Notes under the pieces: model-generated
What the model saw: only the letters and a program-made list of their open reading frames with translations
Told to the model about the DNA's origin: nothing
The model's database searches: none
In this document: piece by piece, positions 2,834-57,258 of the stretch
Numbering within the stretch: the first letter of the stretch is position 1
Layout: the number at the start of each line of letters is the position of its first letter
Translations under genes and position numbers: made by a program
From: a virus
Reading direction: 5' to 3' (one strand)
IMG/VR virus record: IMGVR_UViG_3300037826_000057
Location: 13,054-77,053 of that record
Length of the DNA: 64,000 nt

Positions 2834-3775
2834 ATGCATGTAAACAGGGTTCCAGTAGAGTATGTGATAAAAAGGAAGTTTGATCTAAAGGAAAGTGGAA
2901 CTAGGTATTTGCGCGGAATTAAACATGACAGTCTTGTTATTGATAAGAAGACAAATACTTTTCACTGGAATTCTATTGATTTACACGGAAACGCTCTAAC
3001 TTGGTTGACAAAAGTAGAAGGATATTCTGTGCGCCAAGCTCTTCAGGAACTTGAGGAGTATAGTGGAATTCCCTTTACAAAGACTTTTACAAAGTTAGAA
3101 GAACCAACACCTATTTACCAAAAATTATTAGATGCATTTTTTAAATTGGGTAAGTATAATAGAAAATATTGGTATAAAAGAGGTTATACTGATAGTACAA
3201 TAAATAAGTATAAGTTAGGATATACTGGGAAAGCGTATGTAATTCCAATTATAATTGATGGGAAACTGGATAATTTTCAATGTCGTTTAGCAGATAGTAA
3301 ACGCATGTGGAATTGGTCTAGTAGAAGCCCGTCGCTCTTTGGACTTGACCAGGTGGATAGTTCTTATGTATTTTTAACAGAGGGGCCTACAGATGCAATG
3401 GCTTTGACACAGTGTGGTCTACCAGCTATTAGCCATAATTCAGGAGCTGGTGCTTGGGATACTTCTTGGAATTCGCGTATTCTTGATTTTGATTTCATTT
3501 ATATTTTGTATGATAATGATAAAGCGGGTATACGTGGAAGCAAGAAAATTTCCAAGAAATTATTAAGTAGAGGTTATGTATTATTCTGGCCCAGCTTTTT
3601 CGCTAACGGTTATGATATAAATAAAGCTATGAATTCTATGGGCGAATCTAAAACAAAGGAGTTTATTCAAGAAGTTTTATTGGAATATGCAATACATTCT
3701 TCAGATATATCTAATCAAAGTTATGTAAGTGAAGTAAGAAAACAAATAGACAGGAAAGTAAGGAGACTATTGTAA
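2834..3775 (+). CDS. DNA primase (TOPRIM domain)
   Basis: KRGY, LTEGPTDAMAL, LYDNDKAG and YDIN motifs. Confidence 0.85.
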   Translation: MHVNRVPVEYVIKRKFDLKESGTRYLRGIKHDSLVIDKKTNTFHWNSIDLHGNALTWLTKVEGYSVRQALQELEEYSGIPFTKTFTKLEEPTPIYQKLLDAFFKLGKYNRKYWYKRGYTDSTINKYKLGYTGKAYVIPIIIDGKLDNFQCRLADSKRMWNWSSRSPSLFGLDQVDSSYVFLTEGPTDAMALTQCGLPAISHNSGAGAWDTSWNSRILDFDFIYILYDNDKAGIRGSKKISKKLLSRGYVLFWPSFFANGYDINKAMNSMGESKTKEFIQEVLLEYAIHSSDISNQSYVSEVRKQIDRKVRRLL

Positions 3776-3785
3776 GGAGATTATT

Positions 3786-4154
3786 ATGGAAAAACTAGTT
3801 GTTAATACACGCAAGCAAAATATTTTAGTGCAAGCGCCTGAAGAAGAGATTGAAGATTTAATGCGAGATTGGGCAGAAGCTTATAAACAGTATGCTCTTG
3901 CAGATACAGAGGAATTTTTGAGTATTTATCGTGCGCGTTTGGGTTTGACTAGTGATGCAGATCAGGAAGAAATAAACGCTGTTCTAGAACAGCGTTTTGG
4001 AGCGGATGGTGAAGCGATGCATAAGTTTATGTCAGAAGTTAAGGCTGAGTATGAGGATTATCGTTTAGAGGAACCGGATTGGGCAGAATGGTTTAATGAA
4101 CGCGGGTATAGTGCTGAACAGTTAGAGTATGCAGTTTCAGTGCGTGGAGCTTAA
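3786..4154 (+). CDS. Hypothetical acidic protein
   Basis: AAGGAG RBS; in the operon. Confidence 0.7.
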   Translation: MEKLVVNTRKQNILVQAPEEEIEDLMRDWAEAYKQYALADTEEFLSIYRARLGLTSDADQEEINAVLEQRFGADGEAMHKFMSEVKAEYEDYRLEEPDWAEWFNERGYSAEQLEYAVSVRGA

Positions 4155-4175
4155 GGATTTTATAAGGAGGTTATT

Positions 4176-4598: not shown

Positions 4599-5034
4599 TA
4601 TGATTGCGGATAAGATTTTATTTCGTAAGAAAAGACCAGATGCAACTTTGCCCAGTAGAAAACACGAGCAAGATGCTGGGCTAGATTTACATTCAGTTGA
4701 AGAAGTCACATTAAAAAGTGGAGAAAGTAAAATTGTACATACTGGTATTGAATTAGCCAAATGTATGCCAGATTTGGTACTATTTATTTGGCCTAAGAGT
4801 GGAATGGATGCGAAATATGGTATTACTACTGGGGCCGGTGTCGTGGATTCAAATTATCGTGGAGAGATTTTAGTCTTATTAAGGAATGTAAGTGATTCAG
4901 ATTATATTATTTCTAAAGGTGAACAGGTTGCTCAATTAGTGCCAGTGTTACAGCCTAGCTTTGAGGCAGCCTGGGGCAAAGAAGTTTCTGCGAGTGAGCG
5001 CGGTGCTGATGGCGGTATAGCAAGGTCAGAATAA
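4576..5034 (+). CDS. dut: Trimeric dUTPase (start probably 4585 or 4600)
   Basis: DAGLDL, PKSG, GVVDSNYRGEI, QVAQLV and ERGADG motifs. Confidence 0.92.
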   Translation: MLKMKSVNMIADKILFRKKRPDATLPSRKHEQDAGLDLHSVEEVTLKSGESKIVHTGIELAKCMPDLVLFIWPKSGMDAKYGITTGAGVVDSNYRGEILVLLRNVSDSDYIISKGEQVAQLVPVLQPSFEAAWGKEVSASERGADGGIARSE

Positions 5035-12704: not shown

Positions 12705-13108
12705 GATAGTATTTCCTCCTTATTCTGGTAGATTGGGCATTCGTTTGTATATTCACAGTACCCACATTCACTCTCCAGGTACCGCCTCTTGTAACTTTCG
12801 CAGAAGAGACGGTCAAACTTTCTGCAGTAATTTCCTTCTATCTCCTCTAGTTTATTACCGCAGTAGCAATATGCTTGCAGATATTGCTTTTGCGGTGGAT
12901 ATTGTATCTCAAACCCGCAGGATGGGCACCTGACTACCGGCTTGGTACTGCGTACTGGTTCACTCGCATTTACATTCTGCGACAGGATTTGGGGGGTTAC
13001 CCCATCATTCGTGACGGTAACTCTAACTTGTCCTGTCACCTCAAGCATGATGGTTCCCTGGGCTTTTGAAAACTTGTAACTGCAATTTGGACATGTTACT
13101 TCAATCAT
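12701..13108 (-). CDS. Multi zinc-ribbon protein
   Basis: CPNC, CPSC, CYC and CGYC; ATGA-coupled to the ligase. Confidence 0.65.
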   Translation of the reverse strand: MIEVTCPNCSYKFSKAQGTIMLEVTGQVRVTVTNDGVTPQILSQNVNASEPVRSTKPVVRCPSCGFEIQYPPQKQYLQAYCYCGNKLEEIEGNYCRKFDRLFCESYKRRYLESECGYCEYTNECPIYQNKEEILS

Positions 13109-18392: not shown

Positions 18393-18470
18393 AGGCCCAT
18401 AGCTCAGTCTGGTTAGAGCGTCCGGCTCATAACCGGGTGGTCACTGGTTCAAATCCAGTTGGGCCTACCA
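18393..18470 (+). tRNA. tRNA with CAT anticodon, most likely Ile2 (lysidine type); elongator Met not excluded
   Basis: Acceptor AGGCCCA/TGGGCCT, TAGCTCAG D-arm, CT-CAT-AA loop, GTTCAAATC, encoded CCA; no initiator features. Confidence 0.88.
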
Positions 18471-19933: not shown

Positions 19934-20018
19934 GCCGGTGTGGTGGAATCTGGTAGACACCGGGGACTTAAAATCCCCTGATCGCAAGGTCGTGAGGGTT
20001 CGACTCCCTCCACCGGCA
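19934..20018 (+). tRNA. tRNA-Leu (TAA), CCA not encoded
   Basis: GCCGGTG/CACCGGC acceptor, GGGGA-CTTAAAA-TCCCC anticodon arm, long variable arm, GTTCGACTC. Confidence 0.92.
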
Positions 20019-20029
20019 CTTGTTTAAAA

Positions 20030-20103
20030 GCCCTGGTAGCTCAATTGGATAGAGCACCGGACTTCTAATCCGGTGGTTGCTGGTTCAAATCCAGCCCAGG
20101 GTA
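20030..20103 (+). tRNA. tRNA-Arg (TCT), CCA not encoded
   Basis: GCCCTGG/CCAGGGT acceptor, CCGGA-CTTCTAA-TCCGG arm, GTTCAAATC. Confidence 0.92.
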
Positions 20104-50505: not shown

Positions 50506-51246
50506 TTACTTTTCACCAAGTAATTTTTGCCAATAAGCGTGTTGAAAGTCAGCTGTCTGATTTAAGAGTCTTGGATTGAACCAATTAATCCAATCCCCTA
50601 TAATACCTTTTCTGCGCCAACGGTCATTACGCTTTTCCTCACCAGGTTTTCTACCTGATTTGTTTTTAAAAGAATGCTTTTCACAAATATGCTCGATTCT
50701 TCTATCTGTAACCTTAATACCTAAGAAGTCAGAAATTTCCCGTACTTGCTTCTGAATATCCTGCTTCATCCATTCATAAGAAGTCCAAATATATCCTGAA
50801 TTTGTATGCCTTTTCTCTCCACCAGAATATGTACTAGCTCCTTTTTGCATCATATCAAGCATGCGCTTAGTATTATCTACGAATGCCTGGTTTTCTATAG
50901 TGCTTAAAATCGCTTCCTGGTCTGAGTTAAAATTCTGAGGCTTACCAAATCTATCATAACGCGCGTGGAATGCACGCGACACACCACGGTCTCTTGGATT
51001 TCTTACCACTCCAATCACATAATAATTATGCGGAACCAATGCTTCAAATATTTCATCTTGTGTAACGTGATGATATTTGACGATTCTTGCATTGTGCATA
51101 TAATCCCTAACCACATCAAGCTTTGAATTCAAATGCCGCCTATCAATCTCTGGACTTGTGTCCATATTATACAAATCCTTCAAAAGATAATGCAGCCATC
51201 TAGAACCCACACGCATCTCCGAAGTAATAATAATCTTTTTATTCAT
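50506..51246 (-). CDS. PAPS-dependent sulfotransferase
   Basis: 5'-PSB loop SEMRVGSRWL, 3'-PB RNPRDRGVS, SYE and C-terminal RKGIIGDWINWF. Confidence 0.88.
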   Translation of the reverse strand: MNKKIIITSEMRVGSRWLHYLLKDLYNMDTSPEIDRRHLNSKLDVVRDYMHNARIVKYHHVTQDEIFEALVPHNYYVIGVVRNPRDRGVSRAFHARYDRFGKPQNFNSDQEAILSTIENQAFVDNTKRMLDMMQKGASTYSGGEKRHTNSGYIWTSYEWMKQDIQKQVREISDFLGIKVTDRRIEHICEKHSFKNKSGRKPGEEKRNDRWRRKGIIGDWINWFNPRLLNQTADFQHAYWQKLLGEK

Positions 51247-52108
51247 AAGTTCTACCCTTTAATAACTTCCTAAAAGCTGCCCTATGTGAATCTTGCCAAT
51301 GTTTTAAGGTATAATTATTTGAAATTTTTCTAAGTTTCTGCTGGTCGTGTTCGTCATCTAAGCATTTCTTAATTGCTTCAGACATAGACTCAAAATTACC
51401 AGCCTTAAAATACCTTACCCCTTCCTGCTCCCCAAATTCGTCCAACATACCAACACCCTTGGGAATGACTAATTTTACTCCACAAGCCAATGCTTCCAAT
51501 GGAGGTATTGGTATACCCTCTATTAACGACGTACATAAATAAATTTGTAACGACCTAAAAAACCTTGGCATATTCCCGCCTGTTACATGCCTGTGTTTTA
51601 CTGGCCACCCGCGCCCCACAACTCTAAAATCTATATCATTTGATAATTTACTATTACTAAGAGCCTTAACTAGATGTAACCCCTTTCTATTTCCTTCTGT
51701 TACGTAACCCGCCAACCCCACAATTGGTTTAGTAACCTTTTTACCAATGGTAAATCTACTATGATCAACATACGGGGTAACTTTACATACTAAAGCGCGT
51801 GTCTGTGTTTTAAGTAACTCCATATATTGATCTGCGCATGTAGTACAAATATCATATTCTTTCGCCAACTTTCGCCAGCGTCTAGACTTAGCAGACTTTT
51901 CATTATAATGACTAAACCAAGCACCTGTAAATGTTTTATACTTTTTTGGTGCCAAACCCTGAAGATAACACATCCCATAATTTATATCTGCACTTTGGTC
52001 CGGGTTTCTCCCAATAGAATAACTGGGTTGCCCCCTCACTAGGCCCCGACCAAGTCTTGGAACTATTTTTCCACTATTTGGGCGTTTGACTAATACTCTT
52101 ACTTGCAT
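51239..52108 (-). CDS. GT4-like glycosyltransferase
   Basis: RKG and TSLIEGIPIPPLEALACG. Confidence 0.85.
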   Translation of the reverse strand: MQVRVLVKRPNSGKIVPRLGRGLVRGQPSYSIGRNPDQSADINYGMCYLQGLAPKKYKTFTGAWFSHYNEKSAKSRRWRKLAKEYDICTTCADQYMELLKTQTRALVCKVTPYVDHSRFTIGKKVTKPIVGLAGYVTEGNRKGLHLVKALSNSKLSNDIDFRVVGRGWPVKHRHVTGGNMPRFFRSLQIYLCTSLIEGIPIPPLEALACGVKLVIPKGVGMLDEFGEQEGVRYFKAGNFESMSEAIKKCLDDEHDQQKLRKISNNYTLKHWQDSHRAAFRKLLKGRTYE

Positions 52109-53064
52109 TTGTATTTCCGTATTATATCTGATACACGATTGCGAATAGCTTCAAAACTATAATATTTTTTTATAAATTCAAATCCTCTTTCACGTTGGCG
52201 CTTATAATAGTTTTCATCTTGTATCAATCTAACTCCTAACTCTACAGCGCGTTGTGTATCAAAAGGATCACATAAAGGGTGTCCAGTTGGATTAGTCCAC
52301 ATACTACCAACCATTGGAGTTCCTATTATAGCGTGTGCTAGTCCGTGTCTGTTTTGTGCATGCGCAGCATACATATCTACGCCAATTAAAGATGTGCCTA
52401 TAATTTTTATAAATTCCCGGTAATTAACTCGCGGATTGAATTTTATATTAGATATACTTGTTAATTTAGCTGTCCTCTTAGTATTGTTTCTTGGTAAAAA
52501 ATATACAATTCTAGCGTTCGTTGCGCTATTTATTCCAGCTAGAACAGCTATATTTTGCATAGTTCTATTCGGCTCGCTCTTGTGATCAACAGTGAGAATA
52601 TATTTCTTTTTTGGCAAAGACCTATATTTTTTGTATGCAGTAGTAGGACCTATTGGTGAGGGCAACCATTCCCCAGGAACCCCTGTAAGATTAGAGTACA
52701 AGTTTGCAGCTTGCCTAGTGCGTGCCGCTATTACATCACAATAATTTTTAATGTCCTTAAGTCTAGTTATACCTTTATTATGATTTAAAAACTTTTCTAG
52801 ATGTGGGTCTGGCATTGCAACAATTAAAGCATTCGGACGGGCGTCTCTTAAATGTTTTAGATGTAAAGAATTAAAAAATAAATTAACTAAAAAAACATCG
52901 TAATTATTTAGAACTTTTCTACCTATTGGAGTCTTTTCCCAATAAAGTCTATGACATTCTAACGCTCTTGGCAGAGCCGAAATACCAACAACTGGTTTTT
53001 CTGGATGCTTAAATTTTTCAATGCGTTTTTTAGATTTGTATACATATGCAACACGCTCAAACAT
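52099..53064 (-). CDS. GT-B fold glycosyltransferase-like protein
   Basis: HAIIGTPMVGS and RERGFEFIKKYYSFEAI C-terminal pattern. Confidence 0.62.
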   Translation of the reverse strand: MFERVAYVYKSKKRIEKFKHPEKPVVGISALPRALECHRLYWEKTPIGRKVLNNYDVFLVNLFFNSLHLKHLRDARPNALIVAMPDPHLEKFLNHNKGITRLKDIKNYCDVIAARTRQAANLYSNLTGVPGEWLPSPIGPTTAYKKYRSLPKKKYILTVDHKSEPNRTMQNIAVLAGINSATNARIVYFLPRNNTKRTAKLTSISNIKFNPRVNYREFIKIIGTSLIGVDMYAAHAQNRHGLAHAIIGTPMVGSMWTNPTGHPLCDPFDTQRAVELGVRLIQDENYYKRQRERGFEFIKKYYSFEAIRNRVSDIIRKYKCK

Positions 53065-53595
53065 TTATAACCACTTTCCAGCTACATTACTGTCTATAAA
53101 ATTAACTGGTTTATATTTCAATTTGCATTCTTTAGCCAACCATTTTAACGTTGATTTTGGATAATGTAAAAGAGCTTGAAAATCTAACATATAGTATTCT
53201 ACATCTTTGGATTTAATCGCGGACAAAATCATAAGATACGCTTTCTGTATATTTTCCAAACCTTTTCTATAAGTATTTACATGTTTGCGCCTAGAAGTTT
53301 GTGAACTTATTGTACTTTTCCAATCTCTTATAGGCACGATTATTACAGGCTTATATCCAACCGCTTCAAACTTTTCAATATATGTTTCTAAATCCGGCCA
53401 CGCATTTGCGTGTGGAAAGCTCCTTCTTAATACCACATCTTCTTTATCTTGTAAAAATTTTTCCAGATTATTAAGGTGCTTGTCAATTTCTTGTTTATGT
53501 GTGTATTGCCCATAAACACCCCACTTAACCAAAATTTTAGCAAGTAAGCGCGTACCAGAACTTTCGGAGCCTGCAATTAAATATGCTTTAGGCAT
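53065..53595 (-). CDS. Sulfotransferase-like protein
   Basis: IAGSESSGTRLL loop, IRDWKSTISS and FQALLHYP. Confidence 0.72.
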   Translation of the reverse strand: MPKAYLIAGSESSGTRLLAKILVKWGVYGQYTHKQEIDKHLNNLEKFLQDKEDVVLRRSFPHANAWPDLETYIEKFEAVGYKPVIIVPIRDWKSTISSQTSRRKHVNTYRKGLENIQKAYLMILSAIKSKDVEYYMLDFQALLHYPKSTLKWLAKECKLKYKPVNFIDSNVAGKWL

Positions 53596-54929: not shown

Positions 54930-55000
54930 TTAAGCTAAGCTTGTAATGTCGAGCACATAAATTCCCATCGCGTTATCTACAATCATCCCGAATTGCTGAT
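54930..55000 (-). CDS. Major capsid protein exon 3 (true 3' exon of intron 2)
   Basis: With T55576 it reads YQQFGMIVDNAMGIYVLDITSLA*; follows the terminal G at 55001. Confidence 0.85.
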
Positions 55001-55575
55001 CGCTGTGTTATTCAAGAAGCTTCGGTTTGCTTCTTACTCTCATTATCGCTAATGAGGCCGGACTATACTATCACCCTTTCGGGGGCACCCCTCTAGTCTC
55101 TGGACCTTGCCCATTTAAGAGCCTTGGCTGCTGATTGTCTGCAATTAAGATTTTCAGATTACGTTTGCCTTTTCAAGCTCCGCTTACTATCTTAATATAC
55201 TCAGATGTTCCAGCAATTTGAGTGCTTGCTTAATAAGTATTTCTACTTATTAGCTGCCTCTTTTAGCTCTGCTTCCTTGACATTTAGTATTTTTAAAAAT
55301 CTATTTACAAATGTATATTCTCTGAAATTTATACTGGTGTGGCATTCTTTACATAGTGTGATACCGTTGTCTACTTCATATACCAGCTCTGGATAGTCTC
55401 TTTTTGGTAGTATATGGTGTCCGTGCAAACAACAATTTTTATCTCCACACATTTGACAAGTATAATTATCCCTTTTTAAAACTGTAGAATGTCAAGTTAT
55501 TTAGTTACGCTAAGCTAGTAATATCTAGTACATAAATTCCCATAACATTATCTACAAGCATGCTAAAATTTTGAA
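55001..55575 (-). mobile_element. Group I intron 2 in the major capsid gene, with a duplicate 3' exon and an HNH remnant in loop L1
   Basis: P1: exon AGCUGU with guide GCAGCU (55252-55257), U-G at the splice site; P2 AAUAAGUA-GAAA-UACUUAUU; P AAUUGCUGGAA; Q AAUCAGCAG; R CAGAGACUA; S GUAUAGUCC; P9 CUCAUUA-GCGA-UAAUGAG; terminal G. Confidence 0.88.
55243..55491 (-). pseudogene. 5'-truncated HNH homing endonuclease
   Basis: VLKRDNYTCQMCG...HGHHI...NGITLCKECH; in-frame TGA at 55492-55494 directly upstream. Confidence 0.8.
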
Positions 55576-56252
55576 ACAGCTCCAGGTACCAATCAGGGGG
55601 CGTGGGGTTCATGTCTTCCCACTGTTTCCATTTTGGTTCACCATAGGTAATAAATTCGCCCACGTTCTCGCCAATGACAAGCACGTAGCGGTTGGGAATC
55701 TGTGCCTCGTAATCAACTAAGTTATTCCAAACCTGGTCAAGAGCGACAATATCAGCGCCATACCAATTGTCCATCCAACCAGTTTCATAAATCTCCCTAA
55801 TACCTTCACGATAAGCAAACTTGCTGGAGTCAGAATCCTGGTGCCGACCGCCAAACTGCGTAATCGGGCCTAGACCTCTGCGCGTTCCAACAACTGCCCT
55901 AACACTACCGACCTTATAACGAATCTCGTCAATAGCGTTTCGGAGCATTGTATCAGTTAAGTTAGCGCCAGCCGTATAATTATCGGGAGTATTGCTACCA
56001 TCCCAAATATTAGCTAACGCTGTGAAAACACGATTCACATAAAAATCCTGCAACTTAGCCTGCATTTCCCGACGAATGTCGGCAACCGTACCAAGCTCAC
56101 CGGATTCCAGTTCCCACAAATTAGCCTTAACCTTAATATCAGCTCCGTCCAGCATGTAGTTCACACGGTCTTCAACCGTAATCTCGCTAGCCAGGTGCAC
56201 CGAACCAGGAACCAAGGTTCTAACCTCAATACCCTTACGCACCTTCTTTACT
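55505..56252 (-). CDS. Major capsid protein exon 2 (55576-56252), reading through into the intron-borne C-terminus (55505-55575)
   Basis: Follows portal, protease and decoration genes; no RBS of its own; joins exon 1 in frame (GDAL-VKKVRKG) to give 304 aa. Confidence 0.85.
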
Positions 56253-57091
56253 CAATTTTGTTACTCTATCTAATGATAGGAGCAAGATATTTCTACTTGC
56301 CTCTGCATATTACTATACAGTTCGGACTATCTCATCACCTCTATTCGGAGGGTTTACCGTATGGATATAATTTATATTCAAAACTGGGTAATATGTAGTC
56401 TTTAATACCATTAATAAACCTGTCGTAACTTGTACTTCTCAAAATTAAATAGTATTTAATTCCTGTTTTACTTTGAGAGTGTTTTCTTACATTGAACTCT
56501 AAATTTAACTTGTTTTTGATTGTTCTTTTTAGTAACCAATTATTAGCATAATCATGACTTAATGTTGCTAAAGTTACTACTGGTGTACATTCATAATGTT
56601 TGTCTTTATAGTATCTGTCAGTTCTAACATTACTTCCATCATCCATAAATAGTATAGCCAGCGATTCCCAATCAAATAATTTCAAATAATGTGTATCAAA
56701 TACTTTGTGGTTATAATGGTATAATCTTGTTCTTACTTTTGTATATAGTGGGTGGGTATGTGTTGTCGTTTTAAGAATGTTTTTTCGTCCCTTTCGGGAT
56801 TCATTTATTGTGTAGAGATTTACATTTGTGATATTTTCTAAAATGTTTTTTCTCCACTCTGCATAATCTCTATGGTCATCTGTTACTGTTGCTTCAAAAC
56901 GACAATTTTTACCGTGGTAGTATACACCGCCATCACCATAACAAAATGCAACTACATATTTTAAAAGTTCTTTTTTATCCATAGTCTCTACACCTCTCAT
57001 AACGAGTTGGCACGGGATTGTCCACTTGGGAGTTTCCCCGTTTTTAGGTAAATTTTCTATAATAATTACTTATTAAAGCCCCAATAAGTTT
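56253..57091 (-). mobile_element. Group I intron 1 in the major capsid gene (839 nt)
   Basis: P1 GCCCU/GGGGC with U-G; P2 UAAUAA-GUAA-UUAUUA; P AAAACGGGGAA; Q AAUCCCGUG; R UAGAGACUA; S GAUAGUCC; terminal G at 56253; splicing restores the frame. Confidence 0.9.
56341..57000 (-). CDS. Intron-encoded LAGLIDADG homing endonuclease
   Basis: AFCYGDGGV and LAILFMDDGS, ending ILPSFEYKL; lies between the R and S elements; likely start at MDKK (56982). Confidence 0.88.
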   Translation of the reverse strand: MRGVETMDKKELLKYVVAFCYGDGGVYYHGKNCRFEATVTDDHRDYAEWRKNILENITNVNLYTINESRKGRKNILKTTTHTHPLYTKVRTRLYHYNHKVFDTHYLKLFDWESLAILFMDDGSNVRTDRYYKDKHYECTPVVTLATLSHDYANNWLLKRTIKNKLNLEFNVRKHSQSKTGIKYYLILRSTSYDRFINGIKDYILPSFEYKLYPYGKPSE

Positions 57092-57258
57092 AGGGCATCG
57101 CCGGGTTCGAGACGCCGGGTGTCCAGCATCAAACCGACAATATTTTCTGTTACATGCCGTGGGTCAATATATTCCGTGATAAGGGAGGCCAAAGCATCGC
57201 GCTTGTTCTTATCCTGCGCCATTGCAGCATAAGCCTTCTTAAATTTCTTCTTATTCAC
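57092..57258 (-). CDS. Major capsid protein exon 1
   Basis: AGGAGG RBS, GTG start; ends at the U of the P1 U-G pair. Confidence 0.85.

Follow-up and report, generated by a model that had tools for sequence, protein, structure and literature searches.

A phage capsid gene with a group I intron that begins with an in-frame copy of its own downstream exon

The window analysed here is a 64-kb stretch (positions 13,054 to 77,053) of the 77-kb IMG/VR virus record IMGVR_UViG_3300037826_000057, a record estimated to be 96% complete, and its capsid gene is interrupted by two introns. The second of these, intron 2, is a predicted group I intron that begins with an in-frame copy of the exon lying behind it, stop codon included. 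We call this copy the spare exon, and the downstream original the true exon or exon 3. As a first reading of the sequence alone had proposed, the spliced and the unspliced messages are each predicted to encode a full-length capsid protein of the HK97 fold. The same layout is present in a second phage and, with other introns, at two further insertion sites in the same capsid family.

The complete group I core that the sequence-only reading placed behind the spare stop at 55505 is matched by Rfam model RF00028 at 55290-55039 (model positions 1-253, 53.9 bits, E 6.8e-11), above the curated gathering cut-off of 50 bits; all intron, exon and copy coordinates are given for the minus strand. The guide GCAGCU (55257-55252) pairs with AGCUGU at the end of exon 2 (55581-55576) to form the P1 helix, with U55576 opposite G55257. 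The terminal G of the intron is 55001, and joining 55576 to 55000 gives ..ELYQQFGMIVDNAMG.. (..ELYQQFGM..), which restores the frame. By the core score, a P1 helix with a U-G pair, and a terminal G with a frame-restoring junction, the element is classed as a putative group I intron. Splicing of intron 2 presumably occurs, with an expected ligated junction of GGAGCTGT-ATCAGCAA as opposed to GGAGCTGT-TTCAAAAT in the read-through message. Of the 120 best homologs, 118 have the spliced type of tail. The other two are P0001, which has the window type, and P0107 (..ELFQSFSM..), possibly a third carrier of the class-1 intron described below, whose lineage was not found in IMG/VR.

The two tail copies of the window (55575-55505 and 55000-54930) are identical at 55 of 71 nt (16 differences in 72 nt if the shared first T is included), and in a blastn comparison of the 77-kb genome with itself they align with an E value of 1.5e-13. 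Eight codons show synonymous differences only, five amino acids differ, and each copy has a TAA stop at the homologous codon, which bears out the description of the spare exon as a 71-nt in-frame stand-in located in L1, which spans about 320 nt from the 5' splice site to the guide. The reported preference of the intron-borne copy for AT-ending codons was also recovered, with a G+C content at third codon positions of 0.22 for the spare copy versus 0.48 for the true exon.

The capsid family comprises 750 matches at E <= 0.001, with proteins of roughly 302 amino acids (aa). The label 'capsid' is justified by the predicted structure of the intron-less homolog P0002 (78% identical), which matches HK97, P4 and other phage capsids as well as encapsulins with probability 1.0 (E about 1e-7, template-modelling (TM) scores about 0.5); confidence in the model itself is moderate, with a predicted local distance difference test (pLDDT) score of 66.9. 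The tail corresponds to two predicted beta-strands of the HK97-fold protein in this model, eight of its positions are at least 90% conserved across the family, and a subunit lacking it would probably be defective.

Part of the spare exon also has a predicted role in the RNA, a point that goes beyond the sequence-only reading. Folding of the 5' region alone recovers P1 in the window and in three of the related loci described below (L003, L018 and L055). In the window, spare codons 3-5, UUUUAGC (55568-55562), pair with GCUAAAA (55267-55261) beside the guide as an extension of P1, in which an AGC-to-GGC change in L003 leaves a G-U pair; these codons are doubly constrained, by the peptide and by RNA pairing. 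In the compact introns the spare exon forms a closing hairpin (z-scores -3.6, -3.0 and -3.1), and its stop lies 1-11 nt from the guide, so near that translation and P1 formation would exclude each other. The differences between the spare exon and exon 3 of the window are clustered at the 5' end (7 in the initial 14 nt, 9 in the remaining 57), as expected if codons 3-5 also pair in the P1 extension. The same 5'-clustered divergence would be expected if the endonuclease of the intron could not cut where exon 2 meets the spare copy, and either explanation may apply.

Recurrence in a second phage and at three insertion sites

The second phage, contig L003, encodes a capsid 71% identical in protein to that of the window. 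Its full-length capsid ORF (open reading frame) ends in ..ELFLNFGMLVNKVMG.. and a stop, with a group I core directly after (Rfam 59.1 bits) and a second tail, YQQFGMIIDRAQG.., with its own stop, behind the core; the spare exon is at 4665-4735, and an endonuclease ORF is absent from the intron. P1 covaries between the two phages, AGCUGU/GCAGCU in the window corresponding to AGUUGU/GCAACU in L003, such that the C-to-U change in the exon is offset by a G-to-A change in the guide; the guide and splice sites assigned in the sequence-only reading are upheld by this covariation. The cores are 96.5% identical, and the differences (9 of 259 positions) comprise one double compensatory change from G-C to A-U, three switches between wobble and Watson-Crick pairs and others at unpaired positions, with none of 76 predicted pairs broken. 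The intron-less homolog P0018 shares 93% identity with L003 upstream and matches its distal exon at 100% identity. Covariation in P1 and the core together with the P0018 match indicates that the distal exon is native, as does the tail type of the 118 homologs above, that the splice sites are as proposed, and that selection acts on the structure of the ribozyme; compensation in both P1 and the core argues further for selection on splicing. The proposal that splicing is optional stands in part: both messages encode a full-length protein, but with the ribozyme under selection splicing is probably not dispensable in evolution.

The spare copies of the window and L003 are mutual nearest relatives, with 12 differences in 72 nt versus 16-28 for other pairs, and share derived states at codons 1, 3, 4, 7, 11, 16 and 20, which argues that the duplication arose once and moves with the intron. 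From one spare copy to the other there are 5.5 synonymous and 5.5 non-synonymous changes, no insertions or deletions (indels), and the stop is kept; the neutral expectation is about 20% synonymous, and although the changes are few, this suggests purifying selection on the spare exon of these two introns. Homogenisation of the spare copy with the exon of its own genome was considered and rejected, as the L003 spare has 28 differences to its own distal exon and 24 to that of the window.

Sequence exchange has also shaped these loci. The window and L003 are 55-70% identical along the backbone, 95-99% in the core, 83% in the spare exon and 74% in exon 3, and the high identity of the core breaks off abruptly on both sides, at the 3' splice site and close to the guide; apparently the core was exchanged or homogenised independently of its spare exon. 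A 2.2-kb block of ~100% identity (51240-53440 in the window, about 6560-8760 in L003), containing part of a 176-aa ORF together with ORFs of 321 and 289 aa, stands out from this backbone and shows that recent cassette exchange is real. In sequencing run X3, a variant of the intron core (55004-55258) is covered at about 525x and the capsid flanks at about 30x, a contrast suggesting that the core, or modules of it, is apparently common to many genomes of that community; loose ends at 55129 and 55222 run into other contexts.

In a survey of 83 capsid-family loci, mostly from IMG/VR, two more group I introns came to light close to the 3' end of the gene, both of which open with their own 3' exon copied in frame. 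Class 1 (the window and L003) is inserted after ..GAGCTGT at about codon 279, with an HNH remnant or no endonuclease ORF respectively and a spare exon of 24 codons including the stop. Class 2 (L018, L043, L052 and L055) lies about 13 codons upstream of the class-1 site and has spare exons of 32-35 codons including the stop. It scores 34-42 bits against RF00028 in three loci, with no match listed for L055, and L018 (intron at 3300-4161), the sole class-2 locus examined for an ORF, has a LAGLIDADG ORF. The class-2 guide is 1-2 nt past the spare stop and covaries with the exon, the exon/guide pair being GACAU/GUGUC in three loci and GAUAU/GUAUC in L055. Class 3 (L027/L028 and L086) is inserted about 6 codons downstream, after ..QQFG, with spare exons of about 17-18 codons including the stop and a guide, GCCGAA, that pairs with exon UUCGGU. 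L027 (intron at 3356-4164), the only class-3 locus scanned, scores 44.6 bits against RF00028 and encodes a 207-aa HNH protein homologous to the window remnant.

All 8 independent loci at the three sites have an intact in-frame spare exon with its stop at the homologous codon, and in none of the 8 is the ORF truncated at the insertion site. Between spare and true exons, pooled past the first six codons, the proportion of synonymous differences (pS) is 0.90 and that of non-synonymous differences (pN) is 0.10. Where the amino acid is the same, the codons are identical at 52 of 133 positions versus 55 expected from independent draws, showing that synonymous sites between the copies have been randomised while the peptide was kept. 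Deliberate over-recoding, to which a pS above the saturation level might point, was rejected, because 52 identical codons against 55 expected is plain saturation. In class 2 the pN/pS ratio is 0.20 from spare to spare and 0.18 from true exon to true exon, and the spare exon is closer to the true exon of its own genome (pN 0.11) than to those of other genomes (pN 0.18), with synonymous sites saturated. The sequence-only reading had inferred protein-level selection on both copies from their comparison within the window. The spare-to-spare changes and the eight intact loci support this, but the low ratio of non-synonymous to synonymous rates (dN/dS) within one genome is not proof for the intron copy, because the divergence could predate its capture from another functional allele.

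A class-2 signature, V or C for P (..M.VTPP..), is present in all four carriers and in none of 55 PTPP loci. M.VTPP is the sole tail in three loci without a class-2 intron, L075 (=L099), L103 and L086. These tails are probably footprints, either left when an intron was lost or copied from a spare exon by gene conversion. L075 and L103 have no intron, indicating that a spare-type tail can function alone. About 90% of the related loci are intron-less with a single tail. Searches of IMG/VR with two core patterns matched the L003 contig only, and a metagenome scan with a P7 pattern returned just four human-gut contigs, with unrelated introns and no tail duplication. We note that protein P0152 (343 aa) departs from the family consensus after ..GMIIDK and continues with about 50 unrelated residues, and its gene may hold a further 3'-proximal insertion that lacks a spare exon.

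The capsid locus, its endonuclease gene and intron 1

The features of the capsid locus are listed in Table 1. The HNH ORF of intron 2 is 69 aa long and matches PF01844 over residues 1-42 (29.3 bits, cut-off 21.4), with the HNH catalytic motif present. Its frame is closed upstream by TGA 55494-55492, the first ATG lies inside the first C-x-x-C Cys knuckle, the ORF ends within the guide/P2 region, and the product aligns solely to residues 93-164 of the 207-aa HNH protein of L027 (50% identity, E 2e-24). The gene thus appears to be a 5'-truncated remnant rather than the gene of an entire enzyme, for which a DNA-binding region and an unbroken first Cys knuckle would be expected, which is the second point not made in the sequence-only reading. 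In runs X2, X4 and X5, contigs leave the window sequence at 55484-55490 and extend the HNH frame upstream (..CQTEEWKIWR..), indicating that these samples also contain a version of the intron whose endonuclease gene is longer. Endonuclease forms therefore include full-length (L027), longer than that of the window (reads), truncated (window) and absent (L003), a series that looks like the usual decay of endonuclease genes; the ribozyme and the spare exon are retained in the truncated-HNH and ORF-less introns.

Table 1. Coordinates of the capsid exons, introns and intron 2 elements in the window.
Feature	Coordinates	Strand	Basis and remarks
Capsid exon 1	57092-57258	-	GTG start at 57258; ends ..GAUGCCCU; aligns with residues 1-55 of intron-less homologs
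Intron 1, predicted group I, with LAGLIDADG ORF (57000-56341)	56253-57091	-	Terminal G at 56253
Capsid exon 2	55576-56252	-	Residues 56-279 by tblastn to intron-less homologs
End of exon 2 (AGCUGU), 5' strand of P1	55576-55581	-	Sequence reading, minimum-free-energy fold and L003 covariation
Intron 2, predicted group I	55001-55575	-	Rfam RF00028; 23 codons before the end of the capsid gene
Spare exon (initial 71 nt of intron 2), continuing the exon 2 frame	55505-55575	-	Encodes FQNFSMLVDNVMGIYVLDITSLA; stop 55507-55505
3' strand of P1: GCUAAAA (extension), GAG and guide GCAGCU	55252-55267	-	Sequence and fold
HNH endonuclease remnant (putative)	55243-55491	-	PF01844; frame open from 55491, first ATG at 55452
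Ribozyme core, P2 to P9	55001-55251	-	Terminal G at 55001; Rfam 53.9 bits
True exon 3	54930-55000	-	With T of 55576 encodes YQQFGMIVDNAMGIYVLDITSLA; stop 54932-54930; family consensus tail

Intron 1 is inserted after codon 55 and does not carry an exon copy. It has two RF00028 matches (32.5 and 27.4 bits) flanking a LAGLIDADG ORF of 219 aa (PF03161, 65.5 bits), both of them below the threshold because the ORF splits the core. Its 5' splice site (after U57092) was placed by homology to the motif GDALVKKVRKG, and the junction restores ..DAL-VKKVRKG..; a copy of this intron that is 99.8% identical is present in L001. Proteins P0009 and P0150 begin at or just before the initial residues of exon 2, which suggests that an intron is present at the intron 1 site in other lineages.

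Portal and scaffold-like genes lie upstream of the capsid gene, which places it in a head-gene module, and three clustered transfer RNA genes are present on the plus strand at 18393-18467, 19934-20018 and 20030-20103. Among the sequencing runs on record, those containing the window are tidal-flat metagenomes only, none of the runs recorded as RNA contains the locus, and deposited phage genomes returned no capsid homolog and merely short matches to the intron core.

Explanations for the spare exon

Group I introns in the protein genes of bacteria and phages are thought to be tolerated only if splicing outpaces coupled translation. On balance we lean towards a buffering role for the spare exon, by which an essential late gene is protected when splicing is slow or fails under such coupling. 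Pairing of the guide GCAGCU with exon AGCUGU would form P1, and the start of the spare exon would lengthen the helix. Were the ribozyme to act first, exons 2 and 3 would be joined and the canonical tail made. A ribosome arriving first, which is expected because bacterial transcription and translation are coupled, would continue past the 5' splice site, unwind P1 and terminate at UAA 55507-55505. The read-through product would be a full-length capsid protein with five conservative substitutions, and not a subunit without two core beta-strands, and the spare tail would then be translated and assembled into capsids. The spare exon would in this way free a very highly expressed essential late gene from dependence on the speed of splicing and lower the cost of the intron, and a lower cost of carriage would account for the presence of a spare exon in all introns located towards the 3' end of the gene in this family. 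Translation into a bacterial group I intron is known to disturb its folding, and in-frame stops soon after the 5' splice site are usual (PMC3984707). Conservation of the ribozyme argues that the canonical tail is still preferred, and the weaker conservation of the class-1 spare exon fits a back-up rather than an equal partner. As to origin, a single illegitimate crossover that joined L1 of an intron to the 3' flanking sequence of an intron-less allele would be enough.

Several observations weigh against this explanation. The class-1 spare-to-spare test has only 11 substitutions. The window spare exon has substitutions, all of them conservative, at four of the eight positions that are most conserved in the tail (Y to F, G to S, I to L and A to V), and that of L003 has substitutions at five of the eight, with D to N among them; constraint on the class-1 spare exon is consequently weaker than on the true exon, and the window spare may make a poorer tail. 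Core and spare exon have different recent histories, which complicates arguments from rates, and what looks like purifying selection might have acted on functional intron-less alleles and reached the spare copy by recombination. The changes beside the splice site, moreover, are explicable by RNA pairing or endonuclease immunity, with no benefit to the protein needed.

The main rival, which we think unlikely but take seriously, is that the spare exon has no present role for the phage and only records how the element was put together or spreads, through one-sided or illegitimate repair of breaks, in the manner of mitochondrial endonuclease ORFs that bring in a foreign gene end immune to the endonuclease; the spliced mRNA alone would matter, and the copy would be intact because it is young or refreshed by recombination. 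The layout equals that of the gene hybrids formed by mobile endonuclease ORFs (mORFs; PMC3630166), one-sided illegitimate repair is documented in T4 intron homing (PMC2988022), and DNA exchange among these phages is frequent. Divergence is densest just past the splice site (44% versus 26%), as expected from target-site immunity or RNA pairing, and the change of half of the most conserved positions in the class-1 spare tail is also in keeping with a copy that lacks a role. Left unexplained, however, are the indel- and stop-free copies in 8/8 loci at three sites with their saturated synonymous sites, and the class-2 spare exons that match the tail of their own genome in amino acids and not in codons. 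The spare copy furthermore outlasts the decay of the endonuclease in the window and its absence in L003.

That the intron is dead, with the proximal tail the sole one in use, as in a true mORF-type hybrid, and the distal exon decaying, we regard as improbable. The unusually long L1 of the window, the decayed endonuclease gene, and the intron-less VTPP loci, in which a spare-type tail appears to have become the sole tail, could be read in its favor, but the compensatory changes in P1 and core without a broken pair and an Rfam score above the cut-off speak against it. The distal exon, for its part, is intact, in the right phase and consensus-matching in 8/8 loci, and in L003 its protein is 100% identical to that of the intron-less relative.

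It is very doubtful that the two tails are programmed isoforms, both needed, for example, at different positions in the capsid, with the balance of splicing and translation setting their ratio. Both reading frames are maintained, and the nearness of stop and guide in the compact versions would make translation and P1 mutually exclusive, but the large majority of related loci make do with a single tail and no intron, class-2 tails differ at few positions, and nothing points to distinct structural roles. Finally, an assembly chimera of two strains, which the sequence-only reading had named as a danger to its interpretation, has a negligible chance of being correct even with several strain variants sharing the same samples, given that the independent tidal-flat run X2 has an unbroken chain of unitigs over the whole locus with 0 differences at an even depth of about 110x, that the layout is also found in L003 and, with other introns, in six further contigs from other samples, and that the tail copies have no identical run long enough to mislead a 31-mer assembly graph.

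We also propose, more tentatively than the buffering role itself, that exon-carrying or 'self-insured' group I introns form a general and so far undescribed class of mobile introns in viral capsid genes, in which a re-coded replacement exon also serves as the hairpin of the P1 loop, translation and splicing compete on each transcript with a complete protein either way, and the spare tail can take over after intron loss. If buffering is correct, an intron with a working replacement exon lifts the splicing-speed constraint, which would explain how an intron can persist in the late gene that a phage expresses most strongly. Capsids of two C-terminal isoforms would then be predicted, and such introns would drive allele replacement at capsid C-termini, as the VTPP footprints suggest. 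There are consequences for annotation too, as gene callers overlook the intron and annotate the unspliced ORF as if it were a whole capsid gene, and phylogenies of such genes mix native and intron-borne tails. With three insertion sites in one family, the idea is open to comparative and bench tests.

Comparison with known systems

We found no description in the literature of an intron carrying its own downstream exon, and several known systems share parts of the arrangement. In collaborative homing, a free-standing endonuclease acts with an ORF-less intron, and their fusion by illegitimate recombination has been proposed (PMC3984707). The related introns with full (L027), truncated (window) and no (L003) endonuclease are consistent with such gain and loss, but an exon copy inside the intron is neither predicted nor explained by it. 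Self-splicing introns in major capsid genes are known from Cluster J mycobacteriophages (PMC3706429) and Lactobacillus myophages (PMC6669764), and the titles and abstracts of these reports do not mention a duplicated downstream exon.

Among introns with an endonuclease in a loop, those of the T4 td, nrdB and nrdD genes and I-PfoP3I of cyanophage Pf-WMP3 (PMC3428280; reviewed in PMC3984707) share with the window intron the U-G pair, the terminal G, an HNH or LAGLIDADG ORF, an in-frame stop and location in an essential gene, and the window intron appears to follow the same cycle of endonuclease decay. In the T4 and Pf-WMP3 introns, however, the in-frame stretch is short and unrelated to the host gene and the unspliced mRNA gives a truncated protein, whereas in the window it is a full replacement of the remaining 23 codons and also forms part of the L1 hairpin.

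The closest analogues are the mORF hybrids of fungal mitochondria, described for atp6 of Allomyces macrogynus and atp6, atp9, cox2 and nad3 of Glomus sp. (PMC3630166), with C-terminal duplications of cob and atp6 also known in Endoconidiophora (PMC6279837). These have the same order of gene core, in-phase C-terminus copy with stop, endonuclease ORF and native C-terminus, they are located near gene 3' ends, and the inserted C-termini are diverged in DNA (64-81% identity) and nearly identical in protein (94-100%) (PMC3630166). They differ in having no ribozyme and a displaced native C-terminus, which in atp6 and cox2 is not transcribed. In the window a complete ribozyme and splice sites lie between the copies, the native tail is restorable, the ribozyme and the native tail are both conserved, and the host gene is a phage capsid gene. 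Bounded as it is by a group I core and splice sites, the element is not filed here as an mORF and would work as an mORF plus a ribozyme, linking self-splicing introns with endonuclease ORFs that bring a foreign gene end, two kinds of element so far treated apart.

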